Shown here piece by piece: positions 13,565 to 34,596 of a DNA stretch of 64,000 bases. The DNA comes from Moorena producens. Lineage in GTDB: Bacteria > Cyanobacteriota > Cyanobacteriia > Cyanobacteriales > Coleofasciculaceae. The notes beneath the pieces were generated by a model. That model saw only the letters and a program-made list of their open reading frames with translations. It searched no databases and had not been told where the DNA came from. The translations under genes were made by a program, and so were the position numbers. The stretch lies in the NCBI RefSeq assembly GCF_965240435.1, contig NZ_CBDEKO010000003.1, one strand, 5' to 3'. Numbering within the stretch: position 1 is the stretch's first letter; the number at the start of each line of letters is the position of its first letter.

Positions 13565-13657
13565 TGGAAAACTCCTGATGGTTGAAGGTTATTCTTGCCC
13601 AGGTGTCCGAAGTAGCGTAGGTTTACCGTTCACAGCCTTTGACTTTCTCCTAAAGAC

Positions 13658-14827: not shown

Positions 14828-14829
14828 TG

Positions 14830-15067: not shown

Positions 15068-16156
15068 TTATCCAGTCTTACCATAATCAACAATAGTTAG
15101 TAAACCTTCTTTGACTAGACGGCGAGCTAAAACCAGTTTGGCCTTGTCACTCAGTGTACCGGGAAAAGACTTAACAGCAAATTGATGATTATCAATCACA
15201 AAGCGAAGGGATGGTTCGATTTTTTTTGGTCCCCATACCTGCTTTTCAGGAAAGATAATACCAACCATATCTTGCCAATCTTCTTGATAAATAATTCGAC
15301 ACGCTGCAGCCGTTATTCCATCCTTTTTGCTAAGAATCGTATCTAGCTCAATTGTGTCGATTTTCTCCTCGTTTTCGACCTTAATCTTATCCTGAATGAA
15401 TAGGTTAACACTGAGTCGCCCTTGACTTGGGTCAGATGATAACATGTCTGGTTTTATATAACCACTGTGCAGCAAATTACTGCTGTAAGCAACTAGTCGG
15501 TTATACTTCATTGGAATAAGTTCTACCAATTCAAAGTCATGATTGGAATCAGTAACATAGTGATGATGGAACTTTGCCTGAGATTCATCATACTCTGGTA
15601 GCCGACTTACTGAAATCGATTCAAAACCAGTTGCTCTATGTCTATAAAAGGCTGTTCCTCCCCAGCACATTTCGGGTAAGGATAGATAATGAACCACAGC
15701 GACTTTTTTATCTGGAACAACTGCATCGAAATGGGGTATAGTTTGTTCAAAGGTTAATTCCTCTGGTTTCATCGTGACCAAACTAAAATAGCCATTACCT
15801 GTGCATTCAGCATCGATTTCAATCTTAAGATGCTCTAACACTGACTTTTCTAAACCATCAATAATGGTATCCGTTTCTTCCTGATGTAGACGATGCCTTA
15901 TTCCTGGATATTTACCTTTTGGAGACGATTTGAACTGAGCCTGATTGATAGCATAGTCTCTGACACGATCAGGAAATTTAAAAAACTGATCAAAAATCAA
16001 GATACAGTTTTTTTCGTTACCAATATACTTAACAGTTAAGTTCGCTGAATCATTGACTTCAAATATAGAGGGATTACAAGCTTGGTTTATTAGTTTTTGT
16101 GCGAATAACTTTTTCAGAAACCCTTTCGGGTTATCAACTGTTTGCGGTTCCATCAA
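15068..16156 (-). CDS. Putative 2OG-Fe(II) oxygenase-like protein
   Basis: 362 aa. Candidate facial triad: HFD (in IPHFDAV), a distal His (in NLLHSG), then RLS (in RLSVNLF) about 18 aa later. Only a 15-nt gap to the upstream halogenase gene on the same strand. Confidence 0.4.
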   Translation of the reverse strand: MMEPQTVDNPKGFLKKLFAQKLINQACNPSIFEVNDSANLTVKYIGNEKNCILIFDQFFKFPDRVRDYAINQAQFKSSPKGKYPGIRHRLHQEETDTIIDGLEKSVLEHLKIEIDAECTGNGYFSLVTMKPEELTFEQTIPHFDAVVPDKKVAVVHYLSLPEMCWGGTAFYRHRATGFESISVSRLPEYDESQAKFHHHYVTDSNHDFELVELIPMKYNRLVAYSSNLLHSGYIKPDMLSSDPSQGRLSVNLFIQDKIKVENEEKIDTIELDTILSKKDGITAAACRIIYQEDWQDMVGIIFPEKQVWGPKKIEPSLRFVIDNHQFAVKSFPGTLSDKAKLVLARRLVKEGLLTIVDYGKTG

Positions 16157-16171
16157 CAGGCAATCCTCATC

Positions 16172-17506
16172 TCAAAACTTCTTTGATAAACAACCTATGC
16201 CACACCCAACCTCAGCAAAACTTGGTGCAGGAAATGAAGCAAACCCTTTTCTGTCGTCTATATTGTCATCTTTTTCTGAAACAATTGAAAACTGATCATG
16301 GTTTTTGAAGGGATGAGGAAGTGCAAGTGCCGCTTGACAGTATTGGTCAAATTCGGCTAAAAGTGGAGAATTTTCTAGCTTCTGTAGCTCAGTCTGAAAA
16401 TTCCCTTTGGCAAATCGCCAAAACTCACTGTCAAAGGCGGATCCCATCCCGTAGTGCCAGCCCACAAATATAGCAGTTTTTAGCACACCGTTCAGTAAGC
16501 TGGCATTAAAGCGCCTCAAATTATTTTCATTCAGTCTTGACTTCTTTCTACCCTGCAACACATACGATACCAGCAACTTACGAAGTGGCCAGCGTGAAAA
16601 ACTTTTCATGTAAGACAAGATCCAGACAATTGCTGTAGCTTCTAGAGGTTCTAAAAATAAGGCAGCATTGCCGATGCGGAAAACAGCACCATCAAAAAAT
16701 GTCCGACAGGCGAAATTGGGAAATGTGAGCTGGCGCTCCGTAGGAGTACAGTGGACTCCTTCGCCATTAAGGAACTGATCAAAATCGGCTCTAACCTCAC
16801 TGATACTGCTAATGTTATGGTTATAGATATAACCGTAAGACGTGCGGGTGGTCAGGGGGATTGTGAAAATCCAACCGTGGGGTCGAGCGATCGCCCGGGT
16901 TGCCGATTGGTATTGGAAGCTACACTGGTCAATTGTAAGGTCAATCTTACCATCCTCAATGGCTGGCCCTCGACGGATTAGTGCAGCATTGGTGGGAATC
17001 AAGTTTAGTTCAATATGTTCAGGACCCAAGGATTTAGGTAAGCCACGAGCATCAATGGCGAAATCAACCTCCAAATTGGTGTCATCCCCAAACTTGATAT
17101 TGGCAACTACACCATCACTTTCAATCTCAACAACCTTCTTCTGAATATGAGTTGCTGAAACATAGTCTGCTAGCAATTCCACTAATTTATCAGCAGAAAT
17201 ATGGTAAGCATAATCGCTCCGGATTGGATAGAAGTGATGAAAGAATTGCTGATACTGGGTTCCCCAATTTTCAAATTTAATCCCAAATTTGCGAGTTAGA
17301 AAACACCGCTGAGCTAACTCAGCATCCTTGAGATTGGTAATGTCTTGGAGCCAATACCGAAAAAATGGTGTTGTTCCCTCCCCTACACCAATGGTAGGAA
17401 TGTTTGGATCAAAGATGTGATACAGCTCGAAAGCTGGAAAATATTTGGTCAAATGGGCAGCAGCGATAAAACCAGCTGTGCCACCACCAATGATTGCAAT
17501 TTTCAT
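16172..17506 (-). CDS. Flavin-dependent halogenase-like FAD oxidoreductase (tryptophan halogenase family)
   Basis: 444 aa. N-terminal GxGxxG (IIGGGTAGFIAA). IGVGEGTTP segment as in the Trp-halogenase Lys region. GWIFTIPL resembles the WxWxIP signature, with F in place of the second W. Confidence 0.55.
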   Translation of the reverse strand: MKIAIIGGGTAGFIAAAHLTKYFPAFELYHIFDPNIPTIGVGEGTTPFFRYWLQDITNLKDAELAQRCFLTRKFGIKFENWGTQYQQFFHHFYPIRSDYAYHISADKLVELLADYVSATHIQKKVVEIESDGVVANIKFGDDTNLEVDFAIDARGLPKSLGPEHIELNLIPTNAALIRRGPAIEDGKIDLTIDQCSFQYQSATRAIARPHGWIFTIPLTTRTSYGYIYNHNISSISEVRADFDQFLNGEGVHCTPTERQLTFPNFACRTFFDGAVFRIGNAALFLEPLEATAIVWILSYMKSFSRWPLRKLLVSYVLQGRKKSRLNENNLRRFNASLLNGVLKTAIFVGWHYGMGSAFDSEFWRFAKGNFQTELQKLENSPLLAEFDQYCQAALALPHPFKNHDQFSIVSEKDDNIDDRKGFASFPAPSFAEVGCGIGCLSKKF

Positions 17507-17754: not shown

Positions 17755-18825
17755 TTGCCAATGGCTACTTCTTACAGCAAACTTATCCATACTACCTTAG
17801 CATCTTGCGAGCAAGGTTCCAAAAAGTCGATTCAGCTGACATCGTGGAAACCTGGTAGCGCTGTCCGTGAAAGTGCGAAAATGCTGATGGATTGCCGCTT
17901 ATCGTTTATCGATAAGTTGTTCATACGCCAACATTATCTTGTTCTTCGTCAAGGTCTAGTCACTGCTCGCCAAGGTCAACTGATCAAGGCTGAGCAACAC
18001 TTCACGGCGGCACAGAAATTCCTTCAATCAAACCAGTTTTCCCCTGAAGGTGATCTAATTTGCAAATCCTTCCAACAGACGGCACAAGCCTATCTCGACT
18101 ATCGAAGAGGTGATTTCAACCAAGCTCGCACCCGGACGTTGGAAGCCTTAGCCATTGATACAGCCTTGGAAGAAGACTATAATTTCGATCTTCTCGGTCA
18201 TTCTCATCGCCTCGAACTTGCTGGGAATCTGATACGTATTGATTCGAGGTGGATGCAATGCCAGCGTGCTGTTGAACTAGCTGGTCAACTTCTGAGTTAT
18301 CTCGAAGGAGTATTAGAAGAATTACCCCTTTCAGGTTCGTGGAGTTCCCAGCAGGTTGTGCTGCTACCCGTTGAATCTGCTCTGGGGATATTCCTAGCGG
18401 TAACCAGTGAAGTGGCTCTGATGTTGGCAGGAAAAAACCGTCAGGTTGCTCGTGAGCTGTTTGAAATTATGGCTTACCCCATGCAGTTACCCGCTAATCA
18501 AAACCGTTGCCTCCACCCCCGAGTTCATACTTGGTTCTTGCTTAAACAAGCATTCGTCAAGGGCGACACTACCACCTTTCTAGAACAAGCGTCTCATTTC
18601 CTAGCTGAGGGACGTGGTGATATACCGTTACTTTGGTATGGGACTGTTGTTGATCTAGTTACCCTATGTGATCAGCTTGCTTTACCAAACTCAGAGTTAG
18701 TGAGACAGGATATTGCTAGAAATGCCGCTACATGGGAAAAGCTGCCAAAACCGTTTTTTCCTTTGCTTGGAGTCCTTGAAAAAAGCAACAGTTACAACAA
18801 ATTGAAATCATGCTCCCACCCGTAA
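17755..18825 (+). CDS. Hypothetical protein
   Basis: 356 aa. Overlaps the next gene by 16 nt, which suggests co-transcription. The true start may be internal. Confidence 0.4.
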   Translation: MPMATSYSKLIHTTLASCEQGSKKSIQLTSWKPGSAVRESAKMLMDCRLSFIDKLFIRQHYLVLRQGLVTARQGQLIKAEQHFTAAQKFLQSNQFSPEGDLICKSFQQTAQAYLDYRRGDFNQARTRTLEALAIDTALEEDYNFDLLGHSHRLELAGNLIRIDSRWMQCQRAVELAGQLLSYLEGVLEELPLSGSWSSQQVVLLPVESALGIFLAVTSEVALMLAGKNRQVARELFEIMAYPMQLPANQNRCLHPRVHTWFLLKQAFVKGDTTTFLEQASHFLAEGRGDIPLLWYGTVVDLVTLCDQLALPNSELVRQDIARNAATWEKLPKPFFPLLGVLEKSNSYNKLKSCSHP

Positions 18826-20960
18826 AATCACAAAAAGCGGTCTACGATGTTGTCATTGTTGGTGGTGGACTTGCTGGCTTAACAGCAGGGTACCTGTTAA
18901 AGGATTTAAACATATTAGTACTTGAAAAAGAAGCCCAAGCTGGTGGACGGATACTTAGCCATTCTGCCGATGGTATCCCTTACGATCTCGGTGCTGTCTT
19001 TGCCTACAATCCAGGCAGCTTGCCTTTCGAGGTGAACTCTTCTGGTCTGATTCGTGAAAGTGAACAGATTGGCATTTTCTATGGTGGTCAAGTTCATTAT
19101 GGCTCTAGCCCCATAGATTGCCTTAAAAAGTTAGATCTGGAGCCACACTATTTGCAGCAACTTGATAACTTTCAGGTTCACCCAGCACAAAAAACAGCAC
19201 GATTATCGGATAAATTATATACCCTCCTAAATGCTTTTTTTCAGGTGATTCATCCTGGAGATATATGGGACTATTTACCTTCGCTGCAACAGGATGCCTT
19301 GAGAAAGTTTTCAACTGATCACTACGAGACTAGTAATGGAGAGTTGATTGAACAGTTTCAGAGCCACCTTGGGTCACTACTTAATTTAAATACCCAAGTT
19401 ATTGAAATTATCGACAAGCAAAGCTGTGTTCAACTTATTATTGAGACCGCCGATGACATTGAGACACTATGGGCAAAAACGGTTATCTTAACAACCCCTG
19501 CTCCTATCGCCTTATCCCTGCTTAAATCCATACAAGAGCCTTGCCAGTCTTTTTTACAATCTGTTCAGTATGGTAGAGGCACTGTCGTTGCTATTGGTTT
19601 TAAAAACCTTGAATTAACCAGTTTTGCTTATCTCGTAACCCCAGATTTGCCTAGTGCTACAATTATCCAACATAATATCCAACATAATAGCAATAAGGTG
19701 TTGCTTGTCTACTATGTTGGAGAAGTATCAGCCCAATTGCAGGCTATCCCAAACCAACAAATTATTCAGCAAACCTTAGGAATTTTGCAGCAACTAGGAA
19801 TTGGTGATATCTCTGAGGATAAAGTGCTGTTTACCGATGTACATCATTGGCCAATGGTAGGTACTATTATCTCTGAAGACAGCTATGGGCAATGGAAGCA
19901 ACAACTATCTCATCCGTCTAGACGAGTGTGGTTAGCTGGAGATTATGTTTTTGCCAATACTGAACAAATCATTCCCTATGGTATGGAAGCCGCAATTCTC
20001 TCAGGTAAACAGGTGGTCAAGAAGGTCAAGCAATATCTAAATAAGGAATTTTTCGCAGAGCTTATAACCAAAAAAACGCCATCAGAACAGTTTAAGTCAA
20101 ACTTTTTGATTGACACATCTATCTATCAGCTTTCATCAGATAAACCCGTTTTCCTAGAGAACAAAGAAGAAGGCAACATTGCTTTTTATGGTCTGATCCT
20201 ACAAGCACACCCTGATAAAACCCTTCAAACTTATCTCCTGAACCAGGCTACAACAGAGCATCTCTGGGAATATCAAATCGACTATGGCATCACGGCAGAT
20301 GATAGTGCTTTGGTAATTGAAGGGCTGATGGAAACTGGTGTATCTGATCAGGTGTTAATGCCTAGTCTCAAGAAACTAGTTGAATGTTTTTATGATTCAG
20401 AGCAAGGAGCTTTTCGCACGATACGTAAACAAGGGCGTGCAGTCTATTGGCAAGGATCATCTATTGATGCAACTGCTCAAGTTGGGTATTTACTCCATCG
20501 AATTGCCCCAGATCAGTTTCAATCAGAAATTGCAGCCTGTACTCGTTATCTCCAGCAAAATCAGTCTGAACAAGGATACTGGCAAAGTCGTTGGTTTCCG
20601 TCAGTGATGCTAACCACTTACTATGCCATACGACTTCTGTGGTCCTTCCCTCAATACCAAAAAACCCTAAAGAAAACTAGGAATTACATCCTGCGTACTC
20701 AGACTGACAATGGTAGCTGGGGGAACTCTATAATTGAAACGGCTACAGCAATTTTGGCACTTCAAACTATGAATGTGGGTGCATCAGCTCAAACCGAAGC
20801 AAAGCAGTGGATTTTGTCTCAAAAAACAGACCAGGGATGGCGAGGAGAGCCAGTACTCTATTACTGGTATGAAATCAACCCAGATAAAAAACTATTTTTT
20901 CATTGTATGGATAAAGGAAAAATCACTACTGCCTGGGCGACTTTGGCTCTCAACGGTTAA
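18810..20960 (+). CDS. FAD-dependent amine-oxidase-like domain fused to prenyltransferase/squalene-cyclase-like QW-repeat domain
   Basis: 716 aa. N-terminal dinucleotide-binding motif VVIVGGGLAGLTAGYLL...LEKEAQAGGR, and a C-proximal FAD motif WLAGDYVFANTEQIIPYGMEAAILSG. The C-terminal ~280 aa contain three QxxxGxW-type repeats (QSEQGYWQS, QTDNGSWGN, QKTDQGWRGE). Confidence 0.55.
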   Translation: MLPPVKSQKAVYDVVIVGGGLAGLTAGYLLKDLNILVLEKEAQAGGRILSHSADGIPYDLGAVFAYNPGSLPFEVNSSGLIRESEQIGIFYGGQVHYGSSPIDCLKKLDLEPHYLQQLDNFQVHPAQKTARLSDKLYTLLNAFFQVIHPGDIWDYLPSLQQDALRKFSTDHYETSNGELIEQFQSHLGSLLNLNTQVIEIIDKQSCVQLIIETADDIETLWAKTVILTTPAPIALSLLKSIQEPCQSFLQSVQYGRGTVVAIGFKNLELTSFAYLVTPDLPSATIIQHNIQHNSNKVLLVYYVGEVSAQLQAIPNQQIIQQTLGILQQLGIGDISEDKVLFTDVHHWPMVGTIISEDSYGQWKQQLSHPSRRVWLAGDYVFANTEQIIPYGMEAAILSGKQVVKKVKQYLNKEFFAELITKKTPSEQFKSNFLIDTSIYQLSSDKPVFLENKEEGNIAFYGLILQAHPDKTLQTYLLNQATTEHLWEYQIDYGITADDSALVIEGLMETGVSDQVLMPSLKKLVECFYDSEQGAFRTIRKQGRAVYWQGSSIDATAQVGYLLHRIAPDQFQSEIAACTRYLQQNQSEQGYWQSRWFPSVMLTTYYAIRLLWSFPQYQKTLKKTRNYILRTQTDNGSWGNSIIETATAILALQTMNVGASAQTEAKQWILSQKTDQGWRGEPVLYYWYEINPDKKLFFHCMDKGKITTAWATLALNG

Positions 20961-21318: not shown

Positions 21319-22446
21319 CTATAATTCCTTTTGCTGATCAAGTTTGGCATAGGGCAGCCAATGGTGCCATAGTGCTAAATAGGCTTTTGCGATCAAGTCC
21401 TGGTAAGGTTGATAAACAACTTTGATGTGATTTAGTCTTTTGGCAAAGGTACTTAAATAGCCCCGTTTCAATAACGAAGCCTGCCACTTGAGATAGGAAG
21501 GCCACTGCTGAGGATTTTGCCTTTGATGGATATAGCCCGGATAGGCTAAAATGCGATCGCGTTTTTCTGGTAAACAGAGTCCTTTCTTCACTAGATAGTC
21601 TAGTAGTTGCTCGGTTTCAGTTTTATTTCTGACATAGCATTCCAGGCCGACTTTGGGTAATACTCTCTGGCATACATCCAAATCAATGACTAGAGAAGAT
21701 GCCACATTAGCCAACTCACAAACCAAGGCTTCAAGTTCATCGGTATCACCTTGCCAACCGATTCGATTTAAATAGGGGATAATTTCGGCTGGCGCTAGAC
21801 CCATACAGACTCGGACAACATCTGAATCCCTGGCCAGCATTGCACCAATGGTAAAGACGTCAGCTCCAGAAGGCAAACTCTCGAAGCAATTAAACAAACA
21901 TTGCTCAACTTCTGGGGATAGTACTCTACCTAATAACAGTTTCAGAGCAGTTTGGCTTACCCATTGATACCCTCCCCCTGGTAAGATGCTGTAGTCAAAG
22001 AAATCAAAGAAAACACTGGGCAATGGAATTGGTGCTGGTTCCGGATTGACGTCAAACTCTAGCCAAATCTGGTCAATTTTATCGAAAAGTGGTGAAGAGG
22101 GGTCTGCCCATTGGGTGCAGAAGTTACAAACCCGCTGCCATATGGGATCAACTTGGAAGGTTTCTGGCAGGAGGTTGATGTTGTTGTTCTCTGCTAAAAT
22201 TCCTCGCCCTTCCTCTCCAATGCACAACAAAATATCTGCTTGGGGAAGACTTGATTGTAAAGGGCACTCAAATCCAAAGCCTTTGGTAATAGTCAGTTGA
22301 CTGGGTAGAGATTGGACAGTTTGGTAGATGTGGTTCCAATCAGAGGAACCAATTAAGGCCGAGGGAATATTTGGGGCAACAATCCTGCTGAGGGTATGGG
22401 ATAGACAGTAGTCATTGGTGGCTGGTGTAGTGCGATCGCAAACCAT
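21319..22446 (-). CDS. Hypothetical protein (last gene downstream of the lanthipeptide precursor)
   Basis: 375 aa with no recognised family. Confidence 0.4.
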   Translation of the reverse strand: MVCDRTTPATNDYCLSHTLSRIVAPNIPSALIGSSDWNHIYQTVQSLPSQLTITKGFGFECPLQSSLPQADILLCIGEEGRGILAENNNINLLPETFQVDPIWQRVCNFCTQWADPSSPLFDKIDQIWLEFDVNPEPAPIPLPSVFFDFFDYSILPGGGYQWVSQTALKLLLGRVLSPEVEQCLFNCFESLPSGADVFTIGAMLARDSDVVRVCMGLAPAEIIPYLNRIGWQGDTDELEALVCELANVASSLVIDLDVCQRVLPKVGLECYVRNKTETEQLLDYLVKKGLCLPEKRDRILAYPGYIHQRQNPQQWPSYLKWQASLLKRGYLSTFAKRLNHIKVVYQPYQDLIAKAYLALWHHWLPYAKLDQQKEL

Positions 22447-22935: not shown

Positions 22936-23214
<279 letters not shown>

Positions 23215-23477: not shown

Positions 23478-24458
23478 TCAATCAGGAGATGAGATTAAGG
23501 GTTGATTCAAGCTTTGAGCTGCCAAAATTTCGTCGATAGACATTACATTAATATCGTAAACCTCACCAAGTTGCTCAAGCAGCAAATCCTCAATAAATTT
23601 CCACTGGTCATCCGGTGTATAGCCACTGATTCTAGAGCGACACAGACAAACTAGTTGTAGCTTAACATTATTGTTTTCTAAAAAGCCAACTAACTCCTTG
23701 ATGCGCTTAACAATTTCAGATTCCGAAACCTTCTTCTGTCCCTGGTAAACATTACTGCTGTAGGGGTTATGCTTGAAAACAAGGTAGTACTTGCCATCTT
23801 CAACTCGGGTTGAAACTCCACTTCCTAATAAAACTCGCAAGTAATGATACCGATCCTGAATAAAAGATTGATATTGTGCTTCGGTAATTTCTATATTTCC
23901 TTGTAGGATTTTGAATTCTTGGTTACAAGAAAAGTAATCCAAATCAATATCTAGAACTACCAATTGATTGTCTGTAAATTCGTCATATACCGTTAAATTA
24001 TGAATCTGAGCGAGTTGATAGTTAGGATCAATCAGCCACTTAAAATAAGTTTTAGCATTGACTTCATTTTTCTGAAACGTTTTTGATATCAAACAGTTAC
24101 CCTCTGAATTAGAGCTATAAATGCAAATTGACTTAGGGGTTGTTGATAAATTTTGATAAGGGTGCTGTAGCCAATAAAATTGCTTAAATAGTCCTTGATA
24201 AATCGCTGGAATTATGAAGTTTTCAATATTCAGTTCATTGTAGGTAAAGTGATATATATCTGTTAGGTTTGTTCTGTCAAGAGCATCAATGGACTTATTT
24301 AAGCGAGGGGATCTAAAGTCCGAATGTTCATCCACATGAAGTAGGATATTATTTGATGCTAGCATTAGCTTTTCCATGACAGCATAATGCCAGATCAAGA
24401 AAGCCTCATTGTGTTCCTCGACAATAAAAACTGGAATCATACTAACTATCTGCTCCAC
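23478..24458 (-). CDS. UPF0489-like protein with arginase/ureohydrolase-like metal-binding motifs
   Basis: 326 aa. Motifs EEHNE (about residue 14-18), HVDEHSD (a D-x-H-x-D pattern like arginase DAHxD), and LDIDLDYFS (a D-x-D pattern like arginase SxDxDxxDP). The spacings between motifs are plausible for the arginase fold. Paralogous to the N-terminus of 24523-26124. Confidence 0.5.
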   Translation of the reverse strand: MEQIVSMIPVFIVEEHNEAFLIWHYAVMEKLMLASNNILLHVDEHSDFRSPRLNKSIDALDRTNLTDIYHFTYNELNIENFIIPAIYQGLFKQFYWLQHPYQNLSTTPKSICIYSSNSEGNCLISKTFQKNEVNAKTYFKWLIDPNYQLAQIHNLTVYDEFTDNQLVVLDIDLDYFSCNQEFKILQGNIEITEAQYQSFIQDRYHYLRVLLGSGVSTRVEDGKYYLVFKHNPYSSNVYQGQKKVSESEIVKRIKELVGFLENNNVKLQLVCLCRSRISGYTPDDQWKFIEDLLLEQLGEVYDINVMSIDEILAAQSLNQPLISSPD

Positions 24459-24522
24459 TAGGTTAGTAGTAGTAGGGTGCCTTAATAATAGACCCTACTA
24501 AGGGCGAGTTACTGGGGGCGAG

Positions 24523-26124
24523 TTACTGGGTAAATCCTGACTCTGAAGAGTCCTCAGTAGGCGGCGGAAATTGATAAGCCACCGTTATGCGCAACTTATT
24601 ACACAGACGGCTTGGCGGACATCCCCGATGGGGAATGGTTCCATCGAAAATGAGAACGCGACCTGGCTTTGGCAAACAGGCATAGATTAAGTCTGCTTTA
24701 CTGGGATCGCGTTCAGAATAAAGCTTTGTCTCTCCATCCCAGTCAGCTCTCCACATCGGATTAATATAACAGATAGCTGTTTGACCAGGATTCTTGATGT
24801 TAGATGAATCCCGATGGATACCATCTCCGAGACCAAATAAATGACCATTAACAACGATGCGAGGGTCTTTAGCCTCGTAGGGAAGTTGCCGCCGGACAAT
24901 TTCTCTAAGCTCGTAGATGCTATCAGGAAAATCTTTTGGTACCCAAAAGGAGGTCAGTAGGTCATCCTCATCTCCACGATTCTGAAACTCCCATCTCAAA
25001 CCATTCAAGTAGTAATTATAGATTTGCTTGAGCAGATACCTAGGGACTAAATCTTCATAGACTGCAATTCTACCGACAGAGGTGTTGAGGCTGATTGTAG
25101 GAGTGTTCGAATTTTCTTTAATCGATTGATCTAATTGATCTAATTGATCTAATTTAGTATGGGTTTCAGTTGCTTGTGTTTGGCTTACTACCAATGCCCT
25201 GGTGCTAAACATCACATCTGGATTTAAGTCTTCTTCAAGCAAAACTTTATCGATCGAGGTAAGTTGGATATCATAAACCTCACCAAGTCTTTTAAGCAAA
25301 TAATCCTCAATCAACTCCCAGTTTTCATCTGCTGCAAATCCACTAATTCTGGAACGACGGAGACAAATAAGCTGTAGCTGAACCTGATTATTTTGCAAAA
25401 AGCCGATTAATTCCTCAATTCTCCTGATAATTTCCGAATCCGATAGATTACGTTTCTTGGTAATTTCATCGTTTTTACTGGAATTAGTGAACACAATGTA
25501 GTATTTTTTATGCTCAACTTTAGTTTCAATTCCACTACCAAATTGACGCCTCAGGTAGTGATTATTATCTTGAAGAAAAGCTTGATATTGTTCTTCAGTG
25601 ATTTCTAATCGTCCTTGAGGGGTGCTGCCGCCAGTATTTTCCAAAAAGTAATCCAAGACAACGTCTAAAACCACCGATTGATTTTCTATAAAATCATCAT
25701 TTACTGTTAGATATTGAATATCAGTCAGGTTATACTTAGGATTGAGTAGCCATTTAAACCGCGTCTGTGCTGTAACGTCATCCTTCTGAAACATCTTGTA
25801 TATTAAACACTTATCACTTACCTCAGACGGATAAATACAGAGAGACTGGGATTTTGTAGGTAACTTTAAATTAGGCTGATGTAACCAGTAAAATTGATTA
25901 AAAATTCCTCGATAAATCGCGGGAATAATAAAATTCGCAATCGTTACTTCCTTGGATGTGAATCGATAGAGCTGGGATAAGCTATTTTTGTCAAGGGAAT
26001 CATCTGAATACTTATCCACATGGAGGAGACTATTTTTTGATGCTGGTATTACCTTTTTATCAACTGCATAATGCCAGATTAAGGAAGCCTCGTTGTGATC
26101 CTCGAACACAAAAACCGGAATCAT
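24523..26124 (-). CDS. Fusion protein: degenerate UPF0489/arginase-like N-domain plus C-terminal 2OG-Fe(II) oxygenase (prolyl-4-hydroxylase-like) domain
   Basis: 533 aa. The N-domain is homologous to 23478-24458 but has HVDKYSD (Tyr where His is expected) and LDVVLDYF. The C-domain has HRD (in GDGIHRDSS), a second His (in TIPHRG) and RIT (in RITVAYQF), which is a typical HxD...H...RxS/T arrangement. Confidence 0.6.
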   Translation of the reverse strand: MIPVFVFEDHNEASLIWHYAVDKKVIPASKNSLLHVDKYSDDSLDKNSLSQLYRFTSKEVTIANFIIPAIYRGIFNQFYWLHQPNLKLPTKSQSLCIYPSEVSDKCLIYKMFQKDDVTAQTRFKWLLNPKYNLTDIQYLTVNDDFIENQSVVLDVVLDYFLENTGGSTPQGRLEITEEQYQAFLQDNNHYLRRQFGSGIETKVEHKKYYIVFTNSSKNDEITKKRNLSDSEIIRRIEELIGFLQNNQVQLQLICLRRSRISGFAADENWELIEDYLLKRLGEVYDIQLTSIDKVLLEEDLNPDVMFSTRALVVSQTQATETHTKLDQLDQLDQSIKENSNTPTISLNTSVGRIAVYEDLVPRYLLKQIYNYYLNGLRWEFQNRGDEDDLLTSFWVPKDFPDSIYELREIVRRQLPYEAKDPRIVVNGHLFGLGDGIHRDSSNIKNPGQTAICYINPMWRADWDGETKLYSERDPSKADLIYACLPKPGRVLIFDGTIPHRGCPPSRLCNKLRITVAYQFPPPTEDSSESGFTQ

Positions 26125-26240: not shown

Positions 26241-29200
26241 CTATTGCCACAATAACACTGAGGGCAGCTTACCAGAAGCTAAACGCAACAGCTCGTAACC
26301 AATCCCTGCTGTTCCCTGAAAGAAGCCAGGACTCCAGACAGAACTTGGCAAATTGTCAAACAGTTGATAACTTCCTGTTCGTCTTGCCCTCGCCACCACA
26401 TTTGTTCCTCGTTGGAGGGCGAGTTGCCGTAAATCAGGACGGGAAAATCCTTCGGCTGCAATCAACAGAACCTCAATCCGTCCGAAGTTACCGCAGCACA
26501 AATGGTCAATGCCTTGTAAGCCAAATTGCTGGGTCTTTTGCAACCCTACCTCAATGTCCTGCTGAATATCTGCCGTATCCAGCATGGGCAATCCACCCAG
26601 TCGTCCTAGGGCAATCCCCGGTGCTCCATGACACCAACTCACCATAAAGCCCGGTTGCCCCTTGTCCTGCTGGAATTCGCGGAAATCCGGCCAATTACCT
26701 GCCTTCTCAGAAAAAACACTGCGTTCGTAGGCAATACCTTCTTCTGCTGCTTCACGGTAACGATGGTCTTGGGTGACAGCATACAGGCGCAGCAAAGCAT
26801 AGGCAATTCCAGCCGCACCGTGGGAGAACCCCGTGAGGGGCTGTTCCCTGAGAGTTTGCCATGCCTTGGGAGACCCCTTGATACTCACGCGCTGCTGTAA
26901 TAGATGGTTAGCACAAGCTTGAGCTTTCTCTAGAACGTCTGGATCCTGAGTAGCTTCGTACAAGGGTAACAGACCCAAGATTGCTCCGGCAGCTCCTCCC
27001 ATCACATCCAGTTGTTGATCAGTCGCAATCAATTCAGCAGTAATACTCTTGACAAAAAGCTCAGCATCCGCAAGTAATGCTGTATCCCCCAAGAATTGGC
27101 TGACTTTTGTGAAAGTATAGATGATAGAACTAACTCCGGTAGCTCCTCCAATTCCCAAATTTCTCGCCAGTCTCTGACGAGTATCAGCCAGCTGAGTTAG
27201 CTTTCGTAAACGCTGTAAAGCTTGCAAAGCTAATTCACCAAATTCTTGACGACCCCTTACCCAATCCAATGCTGATAGAAACAGGGCAATTCCACATTTG
27301 CCATCGTAGAGGGAGTTGCCCAGCAGCTGTAGTTGAAACCGTTCAGCTTTAGAAACAAACCCCATGCCAATCCAGTTAACACAGCCATTTGGATCTGGAA
27401 TTGCTTTGGCCTGGATTTCCCTAGCGATCGCATCAGCCTCTTGAATCAACTGATCCGGTGTCAGCGGTGGTAGGGACTGTACTTCCCATGCCCCGGTTTC
27501 TCCAGTTGGTTTTCGTGCCACCCGTGCATAAAGAGCTTGCCGGATCAAACAGAGTTGTTGCCCTAGGTTTGTTTCACTGAATTGCTGTAGCTCGGTGATC
27601 ACCTGCTCATAACTCGGTTGCTTAAAAGCCTGGGGAATAGTTTCTCCGGTAGGTAGGGGTAAAGCCTGACTAGCAGAGTTGCCCTGAAAGTATGGAATAT
27701 CGAGTTGTGCCATTACCTGCAACTCAGCAGCTAAGATCGGCCAAGCTTTTGGTTTCTGCTGATCAACCAGGAACCCTCGACTGATGATGTCTAGCTCAAG
27801 ACTGTAATCAACTCCATCTTGGCAGAATTCAGGGGTCAAGGTTTTCTGCAAAACTGTCCGATACACTTTAGTTGACCGAAAGATAAACCGGATGGGTTGG
27901 TCTTGCAGGGCTGCTAGTGGTCCATCAACAGCAAGCATTGCCTCTCCCTGGCCGATCACGAAGCGATACACCTGCTCAAACCCCTCAACCAGCTGCTCCA
28001 CATAGTCGTTAGGAGACAGGATCTGCTCACCAAGGTAAGACACATTTTTCGACCTGGGTCGAGTGATATTATCGTAGCCCAGATGCATATGATCAGTGTT
28101 GATAGCCTTCCAGCAGCGAGCTTTATGAGCTTTATTAGAGCTAGGTTGGGACTCAATACTTCCCAAACCGCTAATGTCATAGGCAATGCTGCGATCGCTA
28201 CTAAAATCCCATCGGGGCAACAACCCCGTCCGCAAGACAGAATGGTAAAATTGTTGCCCTGCAGTGGATTCCATCTCTTGGGCATCCAGGGAATTGTCTA
28301 TCAGTTTGACTTCCGGGTCAAGGAGAGTTTCTAGATCCACCAACACCAAATGCTCACCACTCGCAATCAGGTTTTGATAGTGGCAGTCTATTCCCCGCAA
28401 AGCATAAAGCCAGCACAATAGCATCCCAGCGCGCTGATAAAACCGTTGCGCCGCTGCTTCATTTTCGCAGGGCTGATGTTCCACATACTCAACCCAGCCA
28501 TACCCACTTTGATTGAGAACTCGTAATACTTTGAATTTGAGCAGTTCTTCGTGTTGATTGCACCAAGCCAACAGGTTATTAAACGCTACTTCCAGCCCTA
28601 AATCTTTGGGTTTGTAGACTACCTTGAGTCCAGAATCAAAGGTGAGTACAAACACTGAGCGTCCTCCATTGTGGGGGTCCGATAACCCTGTCTTAATATC
28701 AGTGACCTGACCGAGACCTTTCAATGATGTTGTTCCTTGCTCCCCTTCAGGGGTTTGGGTTTTACCAAACATTTGATCAATGGCTTCATAGTCCCAGCTC
28801 AACCGTTGCAGTAACTCTACCGTTGCCTCTAGCCAAAGGTTGATACAGGTAGCAACCAATCGCCCCAGCACCGGATAGTTTTCGACAAGGGTAAGGTAAC
28901 CTTCTCGCAAGTGTTGCTCGACAAAGGCATCATAGAAAGTCGTTTGACCATTGCCCTGGAGAGCTGGTAGAAGTAAGTTCAGCAATCTATATCCACCTGG
29001 ACGGGCTTTGGAGAACTCAGCATTCAGTGTCTTAGCACAAAGCGTTGTTACTTGTTGCAGCAGAGTGCGCTCTAGACAACGGTAGGCTGTTTTAGATAAC
29101 AAAGCATTGGCTTGACCTACCACTGGCAAGGCAAAATCCTTGAACCTTTCCTGTAGCTTTGCTCTGGCCACCACCACCACAGGTAGCAGTAGATCTTCAA

Positions 29201-29546
29201 AGGGAAGAGGATTGTCTAGATCAATTGGCAAGTCAGGATAATCCTGAGGCTGAAAGCCTTTAGCGGTTTCCATTACCTGTGCTAGGGTGTTTGCCCACTT
29301 GGGTAGTTGTTCAGCAACTAAACGCACAGTACCTAGGCATGGACGAACTTTGTCTATATCTAATCCATCCCACTGTAAGCGTCGCTGAAACTTGTCCCAG
29401 TTTCCCTGAGCCACCACATTGCACCAGCGCTCAAGTCTTTGTGATACTTGTGCTTCACTGTTGCTATTAAGCTCCGGTACGAATTGCTTGATATCAAGGC
29501 GTTCCCACCAGAAACTAGCTTTAGCAACTATTGATCTACCTAACAA
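26241..29546 (-). CDS. lanM: Class II lanthipeptide synthetase LanM (ProcM-like, CCG zinc-ligand type)
   Basis: 1101 aa. N-terminal LanM dehydratase domain. C-terminal LanC-like cyclase with WCHGAPGIALGRL and HLCCGNFGRIE (CCG rather than CHG, as in ProcM). Confidence 0.85.
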   Translation of the reverse strand: MLGRSIVAKASFWWERLDIKQFVPELNSNSEAQVSQRLERWCNVVAQGNWDKFQRRLQWDGLDIDKVRPCLGTVRLVAEQLPKWANTLAQVMETAKGFQPQDYPDLPIDLDNPLPFEDLLLPVVVVARAKLQERFKDFALPVVGQANALLSKTAYRCLERTLLQQVTTLCAKTLNAEFSKARPGGYRLLNLLLPALQGNGQTTFYDAFVEQHLREGYLTLVENYPVLGRLVATCINLWLEATVELLQRLSWDYEAIDQMFGKTQTPEGEQGTTSLKGLGQVTDIKTGLSDPHNGGRSVFVLTFDSGLKVVYKPKDLGLEVAFNNLLAWCNQHEELLKFKVLRVLNQSGYGWVEYVEHQPCENEAAAQRFYQRAGMLLCWLYALRGIDCHYQNLIASGEHLVLVDLETLLDPEVKLIDNSLDAQEMESTAGQQFYHSVLRTGLLPRWDFSSDRSIAYDISGLGSIESQPSSNKAHKARCWKAINTDHMHLGYDNITRPRSKNVSYLGEQILSPNDYVEQLVEGFEQVYRFVIGQGEAMLAVDGPLAALQDQPIRFIFRSTKVYRTVLQKTLTPEFCQDGVDYSLELDIISRGFLVDQQKPKAWPILAAELQVMAQLDIPYFQGNSASQALPLPTGETIPQAFKQPSYEQVITELQQFSETNLGQQLCLIRQALYARVARKPTGETGAWEVQSLPPLTPDQLIQEADAIAREIQAKAIPDPNGCVNWIGMGFVSKAERFQLQLLGNSLYDGKCGIALFLSALDWVRGRQEFGELALQALQRLRKLTQLADTRQRLARNLGIGGATGVSSIIYTFTKVSQFLGDTALLADAELFVKSITAELIATDQQLDVMGGAAGAILGLLPLYEATQDPDVLEKAQACANHLLQQRVSIKGSPKAWQTLREQPLTGFSHGAAGIAYALLRLYAVTQDHRYREAAEEGIAYERSVFSEKAGNWPDFREFQQDKGQPGFMVSWCHGAPGIALGRLGGLPMLDTADIQQDIEVGLQKTQQFGLQGIDHLCCGNFGRIEVLLIAAEGFSRPDLRQLALQRGTNVVARARRTGSYQLFDNLPSSVWSPGFFQGTAGIGYELLRLASGKLPSVLLWQ

Positions 29547-30409
29547 TTATTATTTCTAATCCTGCCATTAGGCATAATAGTGTTACAGAAAATAGCATCA
29601 TTTAAATCAGCCTTAGCTAATTTAGCCTTTTTAAGATTAGCATGGCTCAAATTAGCCTCACTCAAATCAGCATCATGAAAGTCAACACCTTCTAAATTGG
29701 CATAACTTAGGTTGGCTGCTCTCAAGTTACTATTATAGAGTCTTGCACCACTCAAATTAGCATGACTAAGGTTAGCGCCAGACATTTCCTCATAACCTAG
29801 GTTAATATTTTTCAAGTCCAAACCGCTTAAGTCAGCCTCTGCACAAATAAAGATCGCTCCTGCTTTTGATGGGTTAAATCCAGTGGGAAACTCAGTGCAT
29901 GATGTATAGATAGCTTTGGTAAAATTTATACTACTCAGGTCAGCTTTTTTCCAGCCATCAACCCCTAGCATACGGGCATAACTGAGGTTAGCATTGCTCA
30001 GGTCAGAATCACCTACGTAAACCTCACATAAGGTAGCATAACTAAAATTGGCATCCCTGAGCTTAATACCAGCCATATAAATTACAGATAAATCAGCATA
30101 ACTCAGATCAGTACCACTAAAGTCGCAGTTTTCCAAGGTTGATTCAGATGCTACGAGATGACTCAAATTAGCCTTAGTGAAGTTGGAATTTTCGATAGTA
30201 GTTTCGTATAGATAAGCATTCCTCAAGTTAGCATGACTTAGATCCACATCATCCCAAGTGGCTTCCTCTAAATCAGCATTACTCAAGTCCGCATAATTTA
30301 GACAAACACCCTTGAGGTTAGTACTTTTCAAGTTAGCCTTTTTCAAATTAATACCAGAAAAATCTTTTTCACCGGCTTCGTAGCGTTTTAGGAATTCATC
30401 ACGATTCAT
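29540..30409 (-). CDS. Pentapeptide-repeat protein
   Basis: 289 aa of A(D/N)LSxANLxxA-type pentapeptide repeats. The stop overlaps the LanM start by 7 nt, which suggests translational coupling. Confidence 0.8.
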   Translation of the reverse strand: MNRDEFLKRYEAGEKDFSGINLKKANLKSTNLKGVCLNYADLSNADLEEATWDDVDLSHANLRNAYLYETTIENSNFTKANLSHLVASESTLENCDFSGTDLSYADLSVIYMAGIKLRDANFSYATLCEVYVGDSDLSNANLSYARMLGVDGWKKADLSSINFTKAIYTSCTEFPTGFNPSKAGAIFICAEADLSGLDLKNINLGYEEMSGANLSHANLSGARLYNSNLRAANLSYANLEGVDFHDADLSEANLSHANLKKAKLAKADLNDAIFCNTIMPNGRIRNNNC

Positions 30410-32879
30410 AGCATGCCCCTTATTTGTTTAATCTTAACTAGTAATAATCCTGATTATACTCTAAAAAAAAATATTAGTATTTTTATCAGTTTGGTTAATC
30501 ATTAATGGTTAATAGTTGTTAGTACTTAATGCTATCAAGCCTAATATAAAGTGGCCTCATGCCTAATCGTTAATGTTCCAATCAGCAATCACATCTCTTA
30601 CCCCAGGGGTTTGATGAAGTTGCTACCAACTCAATCAAACAAACGTACTCATAACGAGTTTGGGTTATTTTGGCAGAGCAGAAAAAGAAAGGTTAGGTTA
30701 GTTTTATAGCGACTTCCTTTGCTGTCAGGTTACAAAATAGTTGATTGTTGATTAGGCTTTAGGGATAAACCATGAACTATAGCAATCCGACATAAATCGT
30801 GAGACTTCCTGATCCGAAGCTCCCTTGGTAAAACAATTTTGCTCACAACTGACTTGGGATTTCTATAGGCACAACACTGTATATAAATACCTGAACATAA
30901 ATGCTGTTAACTGTGTTGAAACCCTTAACGTTGCTCAACCCATTGATGGTCTTAGTTTGCCATTACCTATGCCTTTATCCTATCAGTCAACTTTAATTGT
31001 GTCTGACGACTTACTACCTATGAAGGCAACTTAGTAATCTATTTTGATTAGACCCAAACTATGACTACAACTGAGCGTAAAACAGAGAAGAAAATGGAAG
31101 TGCCTAGGACAACTAGTGAAGTTATTCGCATCAAGCCCCAACAGTTTATTCATGTTCTAGACAACAACACTGGTGTTACCCGACTGGAGGTTGGTCCTCA
31201 AACCATTACCCTTCGCGATCACGAGCGGCTGATATTAAAACCTGAACCGATGATTATTGTGCCGCCTCGATATTATTGTGTGGTTGCTAATCCATTACTC
31301 CGGGATGAAGACGGTCAACCCATTGCTGATCAGCATGGTCAAATTCGACTGCGCTACGGTGATCTGGAAATTCGTTTTGCGCAAGATCCCTTTCCCCTTT
31401 ATCCAAACGAGAAACTAGTAGGGGATGTCACGCAACTGGCAGTAGTCGAGACCAATCAAGCACTGCGTCTGAGAGCAATTCGGGATTTTACCGATACGGT
31501 TACGAGAATAGTTGATGGAGAAACCCAGACTGAAACAATTAACCGTTTAGCAGGTGATGAATGGCTGTTTGAAGGACCTGGAACTTATATTCCCCGGGTG
31601 GAGGTTGAAGTAGTTGAGACAGTGACAGCTGAGGTGATTAAACCTAACCAAGCCTTACACCTGTTAGCACGGCAAAATTGCACCGATCGTCAAAGGAATA
31701 GACGTAGAGCAGGTGAAGAATGGCTGGTTAGAGAAGAAGGAGCCTATTTACCTGGTGTAGATGAAGAAGTAATTGGCATTATTAATGCTTACATTTTGAC
31801 AGAACAAAAAGCATTACATCTGAAAGCTAAACGCACCTTTACTGATATTTTTGGTCGTCAGCGTAAAGCTGGAGATGAATGGTTGGTCACCTTTGAAGAT
31901 GCAGAAATTCATATTCCCGATGTTTATGAAGATGTAGTGGGAGAAGTTACGATTACTACCCTCAGCGATCACGAATGGTGTATTGTGCTTGACCCGATTG
32001 ATGAATCTGGTAAACCTCAGCTCGGTATGCGAGAAGTGCGCCAGGGTAGAACATCATTTTTCTTGCATCCTGGTGAGTCCTTAGAGAATGGTATCCAAAA
32101 CATCTATGTTCTCAGTGAGCTAGAAGCACTGTTGCTTCGAGCCAAAGAAGCTTTTAATGAGGGGGAAGGTGACCAGGTCATTACTCATCAACCAGGGGAT
32201 TTGTGGATGATTGCTGGGCCACAAGATTATATTCCCCCTGTGGAAGTGGAAGTGGTTGAGAAGCGTCAAGCCATTCCCCTCGATAAGAATGAAGGTATCT
32301 ATGTGCGTAACATTCAGACTGGTGAACTCAAACTGGTCGGTGGTCCTCAGGCTTATATGCTCACTCCCTATGAGAAGCTTTGGGAAAAAGAACTGCCATC
32401 GGTAGTTGAGGAACTGTTGATGCAAAAAATAGACCCATTGTCTGGGCGTGGTCAGCATTCTCTAGCTGGGGGCGATCAGTCGGAGCGAAAATCAGGAGTG
32501 CGCCAAGGTCTATACCAACGGGATAAGACTAGAGCAGTTGTGTTTCATATTCCTCAAAATGCTGCTGTGCAGCTCCATGATTATAAAAACAGAACTGCAA
32601 GAACTGTATTTGGACCGGACTTGGTGATGCTCGAACCAGATGAAGCCTTTACTGTGCTTTCTTTGTCAGGTAGCAAGCCCAAACGACCTAATGTCATCAA
32701 ATCCTTAGCCTTATTACTCGGTCCTGATTTTATGACCGATATCTTTACCGTAGAGACAGCAGACCATACCAGATTGCAGCTACAACTGTCCTATAACTGG
32801 TACTTTGATGTGGACAGACACGATGAACAGACTGCAGCCAGACTGTTTCAAGTACCTGATTTTGTGGGAGATACTTTTG

Positions 32880-33399
32880 ACACTCCCCGGCCTGAAGGCG
32901 CGGGGATTCCTAGATCAACGAGCCGCCTTAAACCGTCGAGTTCCCATCTATGACGCCGCCAAAAATGGGACAATACTTAACCGAGAATCCGTCAATACCA
33001 AATTCCTAGTTAATTCACGACAGACCCAGAGGGCAGTTCTCCTTAGGCGTTTAACTACTTATTGGAAGTGCCTTATTAAGTCCGTTTCCCTTCCTTTCGT
33101 TTGGTTTCGGTGTGCCCCACCGTACCGTTTTCTCGTCCATAGTGATTCTTCTGGGTTCACACACCAACTGTTAATTGATGATTGGGTTTTTAAAGAGGAC
33201 TTTCCCTTCCCTCTAGACATTACTACTTTAAGGTCGATAAGTTACGGGTCTCTCTCCCGGCTCAGCCTACGGTTTTTCAGCCTGTATGTATCTTGATTAT
33301 ACGATAAATATTCGTGTGTGTCCATAGTTGCTCTTTTTTTTATAGGTTCCTAATAGAAAGCCGTCCTATAAGGACGGGGCTTTAAACCCAAATCTTTTG
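32880..33399 (+). mobile_element. 520-bp non-coding insertion in MVP gene, flanked by CTTTTG direct repeats
   Basis: No coding potential in the MVP frame. Hairpin near the 5' end (CCCCGG..CGCGGGG) and near the 3' end (CCGTCCTATAAGGACGG). The 6-bp direct repeat CTTTTG occurs at 32874-32879 and 33394-33399. Removal restores the frame (520 mod 3 = 1). Confidence 0.45.
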
Positions 33400-33837
33400 G
33401 TAAAGCGATCGCATCCCGAGTGCGGGGTGCTGTAGCAGGGGAAAAATTTGATGAATTTCACCGCAATTCAGCCCGGATTATCCGACTGGCGGTGTTTGGC
33501 ACTGATCAAGAAGGTCATATTCGAGATGAATTTCGTTTCCGAGCCAATAACCTAGTAATTACCAATATTGACATTCAGTCAGTGGAGCCAGTGGATGAAG
33601 AAACCTTAAGGAGCTTGCAAAAGTCAGTGCAGCTAGCGATTCAAATTACCACTGATGCTCAAGAAGCTGCTGCACGCCAAGATGCAGAACGGATTGAGCA
33701 AGAAGCGAAAGCCAGGTTGGAAAGGCAAGTAATTTTGGATCAAAGTGGAGCAGAAGCAGAACGCAAAAAACTTCTAGAATTACAGGCAGAAAATATAGCC
33801 ATTGAGTCTACAGGTCAAGCAACAGCAGAAGCAAGAG

Positions 33838-34101
33838 GTGACATACTCCCACATTGAATCGAAGATTACAGTGTGGGCTTCTTACCAACTCCACCCAACG
33901 GTTCGGATACTCGGTAAGCTTTATTAACGATACAGGATGCCCCTCCGCACCGGAACAATACAATAAGTTCTATTTTTTAATTAGTAGGTGGCGGTTAGCT
34001 CTTATTTGGTTTTCCCTACTATATCTAGTATAAACGATTTTTATCCTGTCCGCAATTCATCTGACACTCATGCTGCGCATGTTCGTTGTGAGGCATAAGA
34101 G
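33838..34101 (+). mobile_element. 264-bp non-coding insertion in MVP gene, flanked by AAGAG direct repeats
   Basis: Direct repeat AAGAG at 33833-33837 and 34097-34101. Hairpins CCCACA..TGTGGG near the 5' end and CATGC-TGC-GCATG near the 3' end. Removal restores the MVP frame (264 is divisible by 3). Confidence 0.45.
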
Positions 34102-34596
34102 CGGATGAAGCTAAGGCTGAAGCGGCTCAGATTCAAGGACAATTAGCAGTTAACTTGGCTCAGCAAGAAGCCGAGGCGGCTCGGATTCGCAATCAAATCG
34201 AGTTAGCTCAACTCAAAGCACGTCAGGAAGCTGAATTAGCCCATCAACAAGCCTTTAATAACCTAGAGATTGCCAAAGCTGAGCGTATGGCTCACATTAA
34301 GAGTGAAGAATACCGACAGAAAGTAGAAGCAATTGGTCCTCAAACCATTCAAGCGATCGCACAAGCAGGTCCGGAAATGCAGGCAAGACTTCTAGAAGCA
34401 CTTGGTATCCAGAGTGTTTTGATTACCGATGGCAAAAATCCCATCAATCTATTTGGTGCAGCTAATGGTCTGATTACTCCCCCAACTTCTAACTAAGTGC
34501 ATCTGTGTCTGCTGCGCGCTGTGTCTGCTGCGTGCTGGCACGGCTTCCCTTATACACAGATACACCGATAACCCAACCCTATCTTACCGGTCTATC

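Follow-up and report, generated by a model that had tools for sequence, protein, structure and literature searches.

A degenerate peptide-arginase domain fused to a prolyl-hydroxylase-like oxygenase in an mpp-type lanthipeptide cluster of Moorena producens

Introduction

The genome of the cyanobacterium Moorena producens (NCBI RefSeq assembly GCF_965240435.1, contig NZ_CBDEKO010000003.1) harbours, in a stretch of 64,000 nt which is called the window here, two adjacent genes for paralogous proteins of the family PF12640 (UPF0489). The first (23478..24458, minus strand) encodes a protein of 326 aa and the second (24523..26124, minus strand) a protein of 533 aa, in which the PF12640 part is followed by a 2OG-FeII_Oxy_3 domain, i.e. 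a domain of the 2-oxoglutarate (2OG)/Fe(II) oxygenases. Both open reading frames (ORFs) and all active-site motifs quoted for them in an initial annotation could be recovered by back-translation from the window. The locus raises the question of whether both proteins are arginases and, if not, what the longer one does in the modification of a peptide.

PF12640 is an established family of peptide arginases, which convert Arg within a peptide to ornithine and are characterized by the motifs EEH(N/H)EAF, DXHXD and LDIDLDYFSC (PMC10028609, PMC12703449). OspR, the founding member, works jointly with OspM, a LanM-type enzyme, in making landornamide in Kamptonema sp. PCC 6506, and peptide arginases associated with Nif11-type precursors were also already reported (PMC10028609, PMC12703449). 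Thus, the initial annotation went too far in assuming that arginase-fold enzymes working with a LanM were undescribed for this family. In OspR, MnA is bound by His12 and Asp43 and MnB by His41 and Asp167, with Asp39 and Asp165 in a bridging position; Glu11 was proposed to stabilize the guanidinium group, and the peptide arginases are obligate homodimers formed via the insert Ser170-Ser234 (PMC10028609).

Results and Discussion

The 533-aa protein is composed of a pseudo-arginase domain (residues 1 to ~300; 25225..26124), a variable linker rich in Ser, Thr, Gln and Asp (residues ~301-343; 25096..25224) and the oxygenase domain (residues 344-533 and the stop codon; 24523..25095), all on the minus strand. 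It matches PF12640 with 49.3 bits (gathering score 27) and OspR (PDB 8BRP) with an E value of 4.8e-43; its score of 178.8 bits against the NCBIfam model NF052474 (peptide arginase, FlmR/OhkR family) is under the cut-off of 350. A modest AlphaFold2 (AF2) model of the N-terminal domain retrieved 8BRP as the only strong Foldseek match (E 6e-23, template modelling (TM) score 0.66), in line with the arginase fold which had been put forward for a check by structure prediction.

In this domain, the three family motifs read EDH (26095..26103), HVDKYSD (26002..26022) and LDVVLDYF (25645..25668). When compared to OspR, Glu11 is replaced by Asp9, His41 by Tyr39 and Asp165 by Val156 (numbering of the window protein), and the same three substitutions are present in all eight fusion proteins that we found. 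In contrast, Glu11, His12, Asp39, His41, Asp43, Asp163, Asp165 and Asp167 are kept in each of the 121 aligned stand-alone homologues, the window arginase itself included. The conservation of the metal ligands which the initial annotation suggested to examine is therefore perfect in the stand-alone proteins, but it does not extend to the fusions, in which the catalytic Glu is missing and the Mn ligands are incomplete. With the catalytic Glu changed to Asp, the MnB ligand His to Tyr and the bridging Asp to Val, the N-terminal domain is predicted to keep the fold but to be no longer able to assemble the Mn2 cluster. Judged by these alignments, it is a PF12640 homologue which should not be filed as an arginase.

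In both Moorena fusions, His12, Asp39 and Asp43 are retained, while in the other six of the eight proteins these residues are also replaced and the dimerization insert of ~65 aa is deleted. The Moorena copies thus have four of the six ligands (H10, D37, D41 and D158 in the window protein), and they also keep the RSRxSG motif. Together with Tyr39, the four ligands could form a mononuclear or otherwise altered metal site, in which case the domain would still be a hydrolase, either a second arginase or a deacylase or amidinohydrolase with a modified side chain as its substrate. Enzymes with a single metal and a catalytic Tyr, such as those of the histone deacetylase (HDAC) type, are also supported by the arginase/deacetylase fold. 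Further, in the paper on the mpp cluster of M. producens (see below), both genes are named arginases (PMC11791876). Nevertheless, we regard a residual hydrolase as improbable. The three substitutions common to all fusions predate the divergence of the family, and six members have lost three more ligands, although every ligand is kept in all stand-alone homologues. Moreover, neither the bridging Asp165 nor the MnB ligand His41 is left, and for the single Arg in the core peptide an intact neighbouring enzyme is already available.

All eight fusions retain 15 of the 33 positions with at least 95 % conservation in the stand-alone arginases, most of them core or structural positions, along with Asp163, Asp167 and the RSRxSG motif. 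The losses common to all eight concern the GYTP motif and the three active-site motifs. The ratio of nonsynonymous to synonymous substitution rates (dN/dS), calculated for three close pairs, is 0.18-0.21 for the fusion N-terminal domain, 0.03-0.10 for the oxygenase domain and 0.07-0.11 for the partner arginases of Roseofilum-type pairs. For the linker, which is poorly conserved in the fusion alignment and has a low predicted local distance difference test score (pLDDT), it is 0.23-0.42. A dN/dS of about 0.2 indicates that the N-terminal domain is under purifying selection, which is looser than that on the oxygenase domain and on the partner arginases.

These numbers also bear on the view that the domain is a functionless relic, a decaying duplicate that is kept as a scaffold for solubility or folding, with an oxygenase that recognizes its substrate alone. 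It would fit to this view that the oxygenase domain evolves more slowly than the N-terminal domain, by a factor of 2-6, and that most fusion members carry a large deletion. The purifying selection, the retention of 15 of the 33 family-conserved positions, the fixation of a new invariant Tyr and Val in all members, and the presence of an uninterrupted, in-frame domain in the Moorena, Roseofilum and metagenomic proteins make a mere relic highly improbable.

The C-terminal domain of the 533-aa protein contains the motifs H437-R-D439 (24808..24816), H499 (24628..24630) and R512-I-T514 (24583..24591). The facial triad H437/D439/H499 and the 2OG-binding R512 are invariant in the fusion family. In an alignment of 52 sequences which includes distant relatives, the D, the second H and the R occur without exception, and the conservation of the first H is at least 90 %. 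The match to 2OG-FeII_Oxy_3 (PF13640) is borderline (29.7 bits at a gathering score of 27, residues 436-514). The mean column identity in the fusion family is 77 % in this domain as compared to 49 % in the whole alignment. An AF2 model built on the 52-sequence alignment reached a pLDDT of 92.1, and Foldseek retrieved with it PolD (9BLQ), OGFOD1, PHD2 and the prolyl 4-hydroxylase (P4H) of P. putida, each with a probability of 1.0 and with TM scores of 0.6-0.68. The double-stranded beta-helix, the HxD…H triad and the 2OG-binding Arg are common to these enzymes and the fusion oxygenase; however, the identity is only 13-20 %, and since the core peptides are mostly free of Pro, the chemistry or the target must differ. 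According to the model, the domain is an intact prolyl-hydroxylase-like 2OG/Fe(II) oxygenase, for which activity can be presumed. Thus, the initial description of the 533-aa paralogue as degenerate and fused to an intact oxygenase proved right, and the degeneration is common to the entire family.

The domain also matches the NCBIfam model NF052475 (FlmC family 2OG-Fe(II) oxygenase). FlmC is a stand-alone 2OG-Fe(II) oxygenase of 196 aa encoded beside the peptide arginase FlmR in the flm cluster of Flagellimonas meridianipacifica. However, the match is far below the cut-off (65.4 vs 240 bits) and covers the profile positions 100-178 only, and the flm precursors are of the DD(I/V)LF type.

Stand-alone relatives of the oxygenase (P0128, P0129 and P0135) were found in contexts unrelated to arginases, namely on a short contig, among housekeeping genes and in a phage-like island rich in 2OG oxygenase genes. 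A metagenomic protein of 553 aa (P0134, encoded at 955..2616 of contig L011) carries an oxygenase of the same clade (30 % identity over 190 aa) on an unrelated N-terminal domain of ~370 aa, and its gene is followed by a JmjC gene. The similarity of this N-terminal domain to a 375-aa protein encoded in the window (see below) was too weak to be used (E 0.001).

The fusion of a pseudo-arginase and an oxygenase is rare, with eight sequences in total. With the full-length query, seven further proteins of the same architecture were found, three each from Roseofilum species and metagenomes and the remaining one from M. producens. When the oxygenase domain alone was used in a word-index homology search, nothing was returned, although the full-length query found the family. 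A profile search with the oxygenase domain against 1.84 billion representatives yielded two fusion clusters at 50 % identity with 379 and 365 bits, the next match having 126 bits, and a scan of one genome per species detected the fusion in two species only. In neighbour-joining trees, the N-terminal domains of the fusions are monophyletic in 97 of 100 bootstraps and group with the adjacent partner arginases in 95 of 100, the Moorena copies branching first. The two window paralogues align in one high-scoring segment pair with a uniform DNA identity of 67 % over 924 bp, which suggests an old duplication. Recent gene conversion between them was considered and rejected, since there is no tract of high identity and they are sisters in only three of 100 bootstraps. 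In the searchable literature, we found neither a degenerate PF12640 protein nor one fused to an oxygenase described. The fusion family may thus be new, while the arginase, the PF12640 family and the mpp cluster were already known.

The neighbouring 326-aa protein differs clearly from the fusion in that all three family motifs are complete (EEHNEAF, HVDEHSD and LDIDLDYFSC; the stretches EEHNE, HVDEHSD and LDIDLDYF are located at 24405..24419, 24318..24338 and 23931..23954). It matches PF12640 with 63.1 bits over the profile positions 1-167 (gathering score 27), and it aligns with OspR (8BRP) at an E value of 6.5e-66 over its residues 7-311, i.e. over nearly the whole length. This homology-based alignment is gapped but continuous over the chain residues 4-301, and the Ser170-Ser234 region is included. 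The residues E15, H16, D43, H45, D47, D170, D172 and D174, which comprise the six Mn ligands and the catalytic Glu, are all kept. The proposal that the motifs of this protein are those of a binuclear-Mn arginase fold is borne out by these matches. With 288.5 bits against NF052474, its best NCBIfam match, for which the cut-off is 350, the protein appears from its sequence to be a relative of this narrow subfamily and not a member of it. The length of 326 aa results from a mechanical ORF starting at a GTG codon. Translation from the ATG at 24440 gives the conserved N-terminus MIPVF and a length of 320 aa, and the database protein P0008 with 93 % identity also has 320 aa. The ATG is therefore probably the true start.

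Taken together, the alignments identify the 326-aa protein as a canonical binuclear-Mn peptide arginase. It has in common with OspR the family, the fold, the three motifs, the six Mn ligands, Glu11 and the dimerization insert, and both proteins belong to cyanobacterial clusters for peptides that are synthesized ribosomally and modified post-translationally (RiPPs) with a LanM-type synthetase. The likeness to OspR noted initially is thus valid as far as a close homologue with intact ligands is concerned, but it is more than the mechanistic analogy it was taken for, OspR being a member of the same family. There are also differences between the two systems. The leader is of the NHLP type in the OspR system and of the Nif11 type in the window, the window core is a lanthipeptide of seven residues with one Arg, unlike that of the OspR system, and the osp cluster, as described in the papers, is without a counterpart of the degenerate second copy.

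The two genes are part of a series on the minus strand. The gene for the class II lanthionine synthetase LanM (29546..26241; TIGR03897 with 987 bits, DUF4135 and LANC_like) is located directly upstream of the fusion gene, from which it is separated by 116 bp. After a gap of 64 bp the arginase gene follows, and then, after 287 bp, the gene for a precursor of 84 aa with a Nif11 leader (23190..22936; Pfam Nif11 and TIGR03798), which in turn is followed by the gene for the 375-aa protein. The precursor ends with GG and the core LCWRWST. As had been stated initially, this core contains exactly one Arg, which is Arg81 between Trp80 and Trp82 and which, based on the sequences, is most likely the substrate of the 326-aa protein.

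This arrangement corresponds to the mpp biosynthetic gene cluster of M. producens (PAL) described by Saha et al. (PMC11791876). According to that paper, MppE has a 77-aa Nif11 leader and the core ACWRWSG, the LanM MppM forms a ring between Cys79 and Ser83, and MppI is a brominase acting at position 5 of Trp80 with the catalytic Lys73 (PMC11791876). The ABBA prenyltransferase MppC geranylates Trp82, as shown by Wakeel et al. (PMC12715784). In these papers, MppA and MppB are annotated as 'arginases' and the final mpp product is called cryptic; in the accessible text, neither a degenerate metal site nor a fusion to an oxygenase is mentioned for either of the two (PMC11791876, PMC12715784).

Besides two PF12640 genes and a LanM, the window encodes an 84-aa Nif11 precursor with a core of the type xCWRWSx and a Trp halogenase that has Lys73; it is thus of the same cluster type as mpp. 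The halogenase, a flavin-dependent homologue of MppI, is encoded at 16172..17506 (minus strand; Pfam Trp_halogenase, 168 bits). The length and the residue numbering of the precursor are equal to those of the published MppE; the core differs (LCWRWST in the window vs ACWRWSG in mpp). The best match of the fusion protein is the M. producens protein P0001 with 97 % identity, and the window DNA is 96-97 % identical to contig L005 of a Moorena sp., whose precursor has the core ACWRWSG. The precursor numbering, the Lys73 and these two identities indicate that the window is a variant of mpp at the strain or species level, with LanM, precursor, halogenase and 326-aa arginase as homologues of MppM, MppE, MppI and one of MppA/MppB. 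The two PF12640 genes hence correspond to the pair of 'arginases' in a lanthipeptide cluster of the mpp type.

The neighbourhood of the fusion gene was compared in six loci, the window and the loci L001, L002, L003, L006 and L012. In all six, the fusion gene is directly followed by a gene for a canonical arginase, and these partner arginases are the closest non-Moorena relatives of the window arginase. Precursors with a Nif11-like leader, a GG site and an Arg/Trp-rich core were found in five of the six loci; none was detected in L003, the sequence of which ends just upstream of its LanM gene. Three short ORFs upstream of LanM in L003 (66..513) contain 'CWCWR' strings that mimic a core, but they were rejected as precursors, because the strings are present on both strands and paired with PAPA (the reverse complement of CWCW) and thus look like a palindromic DNA repeat. 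In addition to the Moorena cores LCWRWST and ACWRWSG, the cores GWARRAWRGVSRVW, GWARRSWRRASRGTW, GWARRAWRSVSRVW, AHTIRRGARRGWRGTTRGARRYFR, AHTIRRGARRGWRASTRGMRRYFR and GRRRRRRIIRWNGIPSPS were recovered, and every recovered core holds Arg, Trp and a Ser/Thr residue. LanM genes are limited to Moorena and to L003, a metagenomic locus. Most loci have a gene for a Trp halogenase (near the pair in L001, L003 and L006), but L002 and L012 do not.

In the Roseofilum-type loci, a JMJD6-like JmjC protein (E 5e-21 to PDB 3LD8) is encoded directly after the arginase (12372..13004 in L001, 12420..13085 in L002 and 7792..8457 in L012). Moorena is without a JmjC protein and harbours a gene for a DUF6445 protein instead (window 15068..16156, minus strand), which has no detectable similarity to JmjC. 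A DUF7005 protein is encoded near the fusion/arginase pair in the Roseofilum-type loci (14499..15653 in L001, 13063..14268 in L002 and 8435..9661 in L012) and also in the window (13658..14827, plus strand; Pfam DUF7005, 546 bits). It is absent from the Moorena contig L005, in which the region corresponding to 13589..14842 of the window is missing. The DUF7005 protein could be the unassigned peptidase of the cluster. ABC transporter homologues of 863-900 aa are encoded in L001, L002, L003 and L012, and the window contains a gene for an ABC transporter of 900 aa (9306..12008, minus strand; Pfam ABC_membrane and ABC_tran).

The constant neighbourhood of fusion and arginase allows for a direct interaction of the two proteins. 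The dead domain could be a heterodimerization partner of the neighbouring arginase, using the dimer interface, and the resulting complex would hand the newly formed ornithine (Orn) to the oxygenase. In favour of this, the Ser170-Ser234 insert, through which peptide arginases form their obligate homodimers, is retained in the Moorena fusion with 43 % identity to that of its neighbour. Moreover, fusion and arginase genes lie next to each other in every case, and their clades form a group. However, six of the eight fusions have the insert deleted although their partner arginases keep it, so that this mechanism cannot be family-wide, and we consider it unlikely.

Instead, with moderate confidence we favour the view that the 326-aa protein is the active arginase, and that the pseudo-arginase domain of the 533-aa protein serves as a substrate-recruiting module for the tethered oxygenase. 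The arginase would hydrolyse Arg81 of the leader-bearing precursor with the core L-C-W-R-W-S-T to Orn, with the release of urea (-42 Da). The 533-aa protein would have arisen by duplication of this arginase and its fusion, through a flexible linker, to a prolyl-hydroxylase-like 2OG/Fe(II) oxygenase, and the dead domain would have been kept by selection as a non-catalytic module. Like its ancestor, it may bind the precursor, either at the Nif11 leader or at the Arg- or Orn-containing core, and present the core to the tethered oxygenase, which would add one oxygen (+16 Da). Since the ancestor bound leader-bearing, Arg-containing peptides, recruitment is the simplest role for the domain. As to the target of the oxygenase, our best guess is the Arg-derived side chain, i.e. 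Orn or, before the hydrolysis, Arg; the flanking Trp residues would come next.

A precedent for such a target is provided by the biphenomycin-type pathways, in which a PF12640 arginase (BipC or PbsE) is followed by a 2OG/Fe(II) Orn hydroxylase (BipG or PbsQ, respectively), and the oxygenase acts only after the conversion of Arg to Orn. This order of reactions makes Orn a reasonable target. As in the window, a peptide arginase and a 2OG-dependent oxygenase belong to one RiPP pathway. However, the oxygenases of the BipG/PbsQ type are separate JmjC/cupin proteins and not PHD-like PF13640 domains, and they are without a pseudo-arginase domain. By analogy, it is plausible that the JmjC protein of the Roseofilum-type loci is the counterpart of these Orn hydroxylases. 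The extra JmjC protein and the prolyl-hydroxylase-like fold of the fused domain weaken the guess that Orn is the target.

Several further points weigh against recruitment by the pseudo-arginase domain or against the proposed course of the pathway. The binding of precursors by peptide arginases is known from AlphaFold 3 models only, so that a retained binding is an assumption, and in OspR the cleft proposed to bind the leader is lined by the insert which six of the eight fusions lack. If this cleft is required, leader binding in the same way would not be possible in these six proteins. For the Moorena fusion, its four remaining ligands mean that residual metal binding is possible. The full-length AF2 model, based on 12 sequences, has a pLDDT of 55 (about 30 in the oxygenase part) and yields no usable domain arrangement. 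Further, the closest folds of the oxygenase are Pro hydroxylases (PHD2, OGFOD1, P4H), but the Moorena cores and most of the other recovered cores are without Pro, and thus the target is not readable from homology. In the Roseofilum-type loci, the JmjC protein is the closer counterpart of the known Orn hydroxylases, and the fused oxygenase may therefore do something else. Finally, MppM, MppI and MppC are the only proteins characterized in the mpp papers, and neither arginase is among them (PMC11791876, PMC12715784).

Keeping the recruiting role of the pseudo-arginase domain in mind, it is tempting to go one step further, although here our proposal is tentative and somewhat short of probable. 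The dead arginase may be a novel RiPP substrate-recognition module which reads the Nif11 leader and/or a peptidyl-Arg or -Orn and recruits the oxygenase for the hydroxylation of a residue other than Pro (Orn/Arg or Trp), a role like that of the PqqD-like RiPP recognition element (RRE) domains. The fusion, the arginase, the DUF7005 protein and the ABC transporter, joined in some loci by the halogenase, the JmjC protein or LanM, may then constitute a small, so far unrecognized cyanobacterial cassette.

Some other genes of the window are mentioned here for completeness. The 375-aa protein (21319..22446, minus strand) had no match in the Pfam and NCBIfam scans. Its position only makes it a candidate of the MppC type, and it is probably the leader-dependent geranyltransferase for Trp82. 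A protein of 716 aa (18810..20960, plus strand) has an N-terminal domain similar to flavin amine oxidases/desaturases and C-terminal repeats similar to squalene-hopene cyclases. This protein probably corresponds to the 'terpene synthase' reported for the mpp cluster and could act on the geranyl group installed by MppC.

Upstream of LanM, a variable segment (29600..34494) harbours a homologue of the major vault protein with Vault repeats and the MVP shoulder domain (31061..34496, plus strand). It is split over three ORFs (31061..32953, 33420..33857 and 34155..34496) by interruptions of ~470 bp and ~300 bp, with the shoulder domain cut at the profile positions 53/60; the gaps between the ORFs had no Rfam match. 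This segment of 4.9 kb, which comprises the vault ORFs and a pentapeptide-repeat gene (29540..30409, minus strand), is absent from the otherwise 96-97 % identical contig L005. Between the pentapeptide-repeat gene and the annotated TTG start of LanM (29546) there is an overlap of 7 nt. Homology to L005 sets in again at ~29599, indicating an insertion boundary just upstream of the LanM start.

Conclusions

The arginase itself adds little, as its family was already known and its cluster published. The importance of the locus lies in its partner for several reasons. One of the two published mpp 'arginases' is probably not an arginase, and its annotation should be corrected accordingly. The fusion predicts an extra step of +16 Da in the still cryptic mpp product. 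At the level of the family, the fusion would be a tractable example of an enzyme domain that has lost catalysis and is reused as a recruiting module in RiPP biosynthesis, and it bears on the question of how substrates are recognized by enzymes that act on Nif11 or NHLP leaders without classical RRE domains. Last but not least, such a module may be of use for directing oxygenases in peptide engineering.

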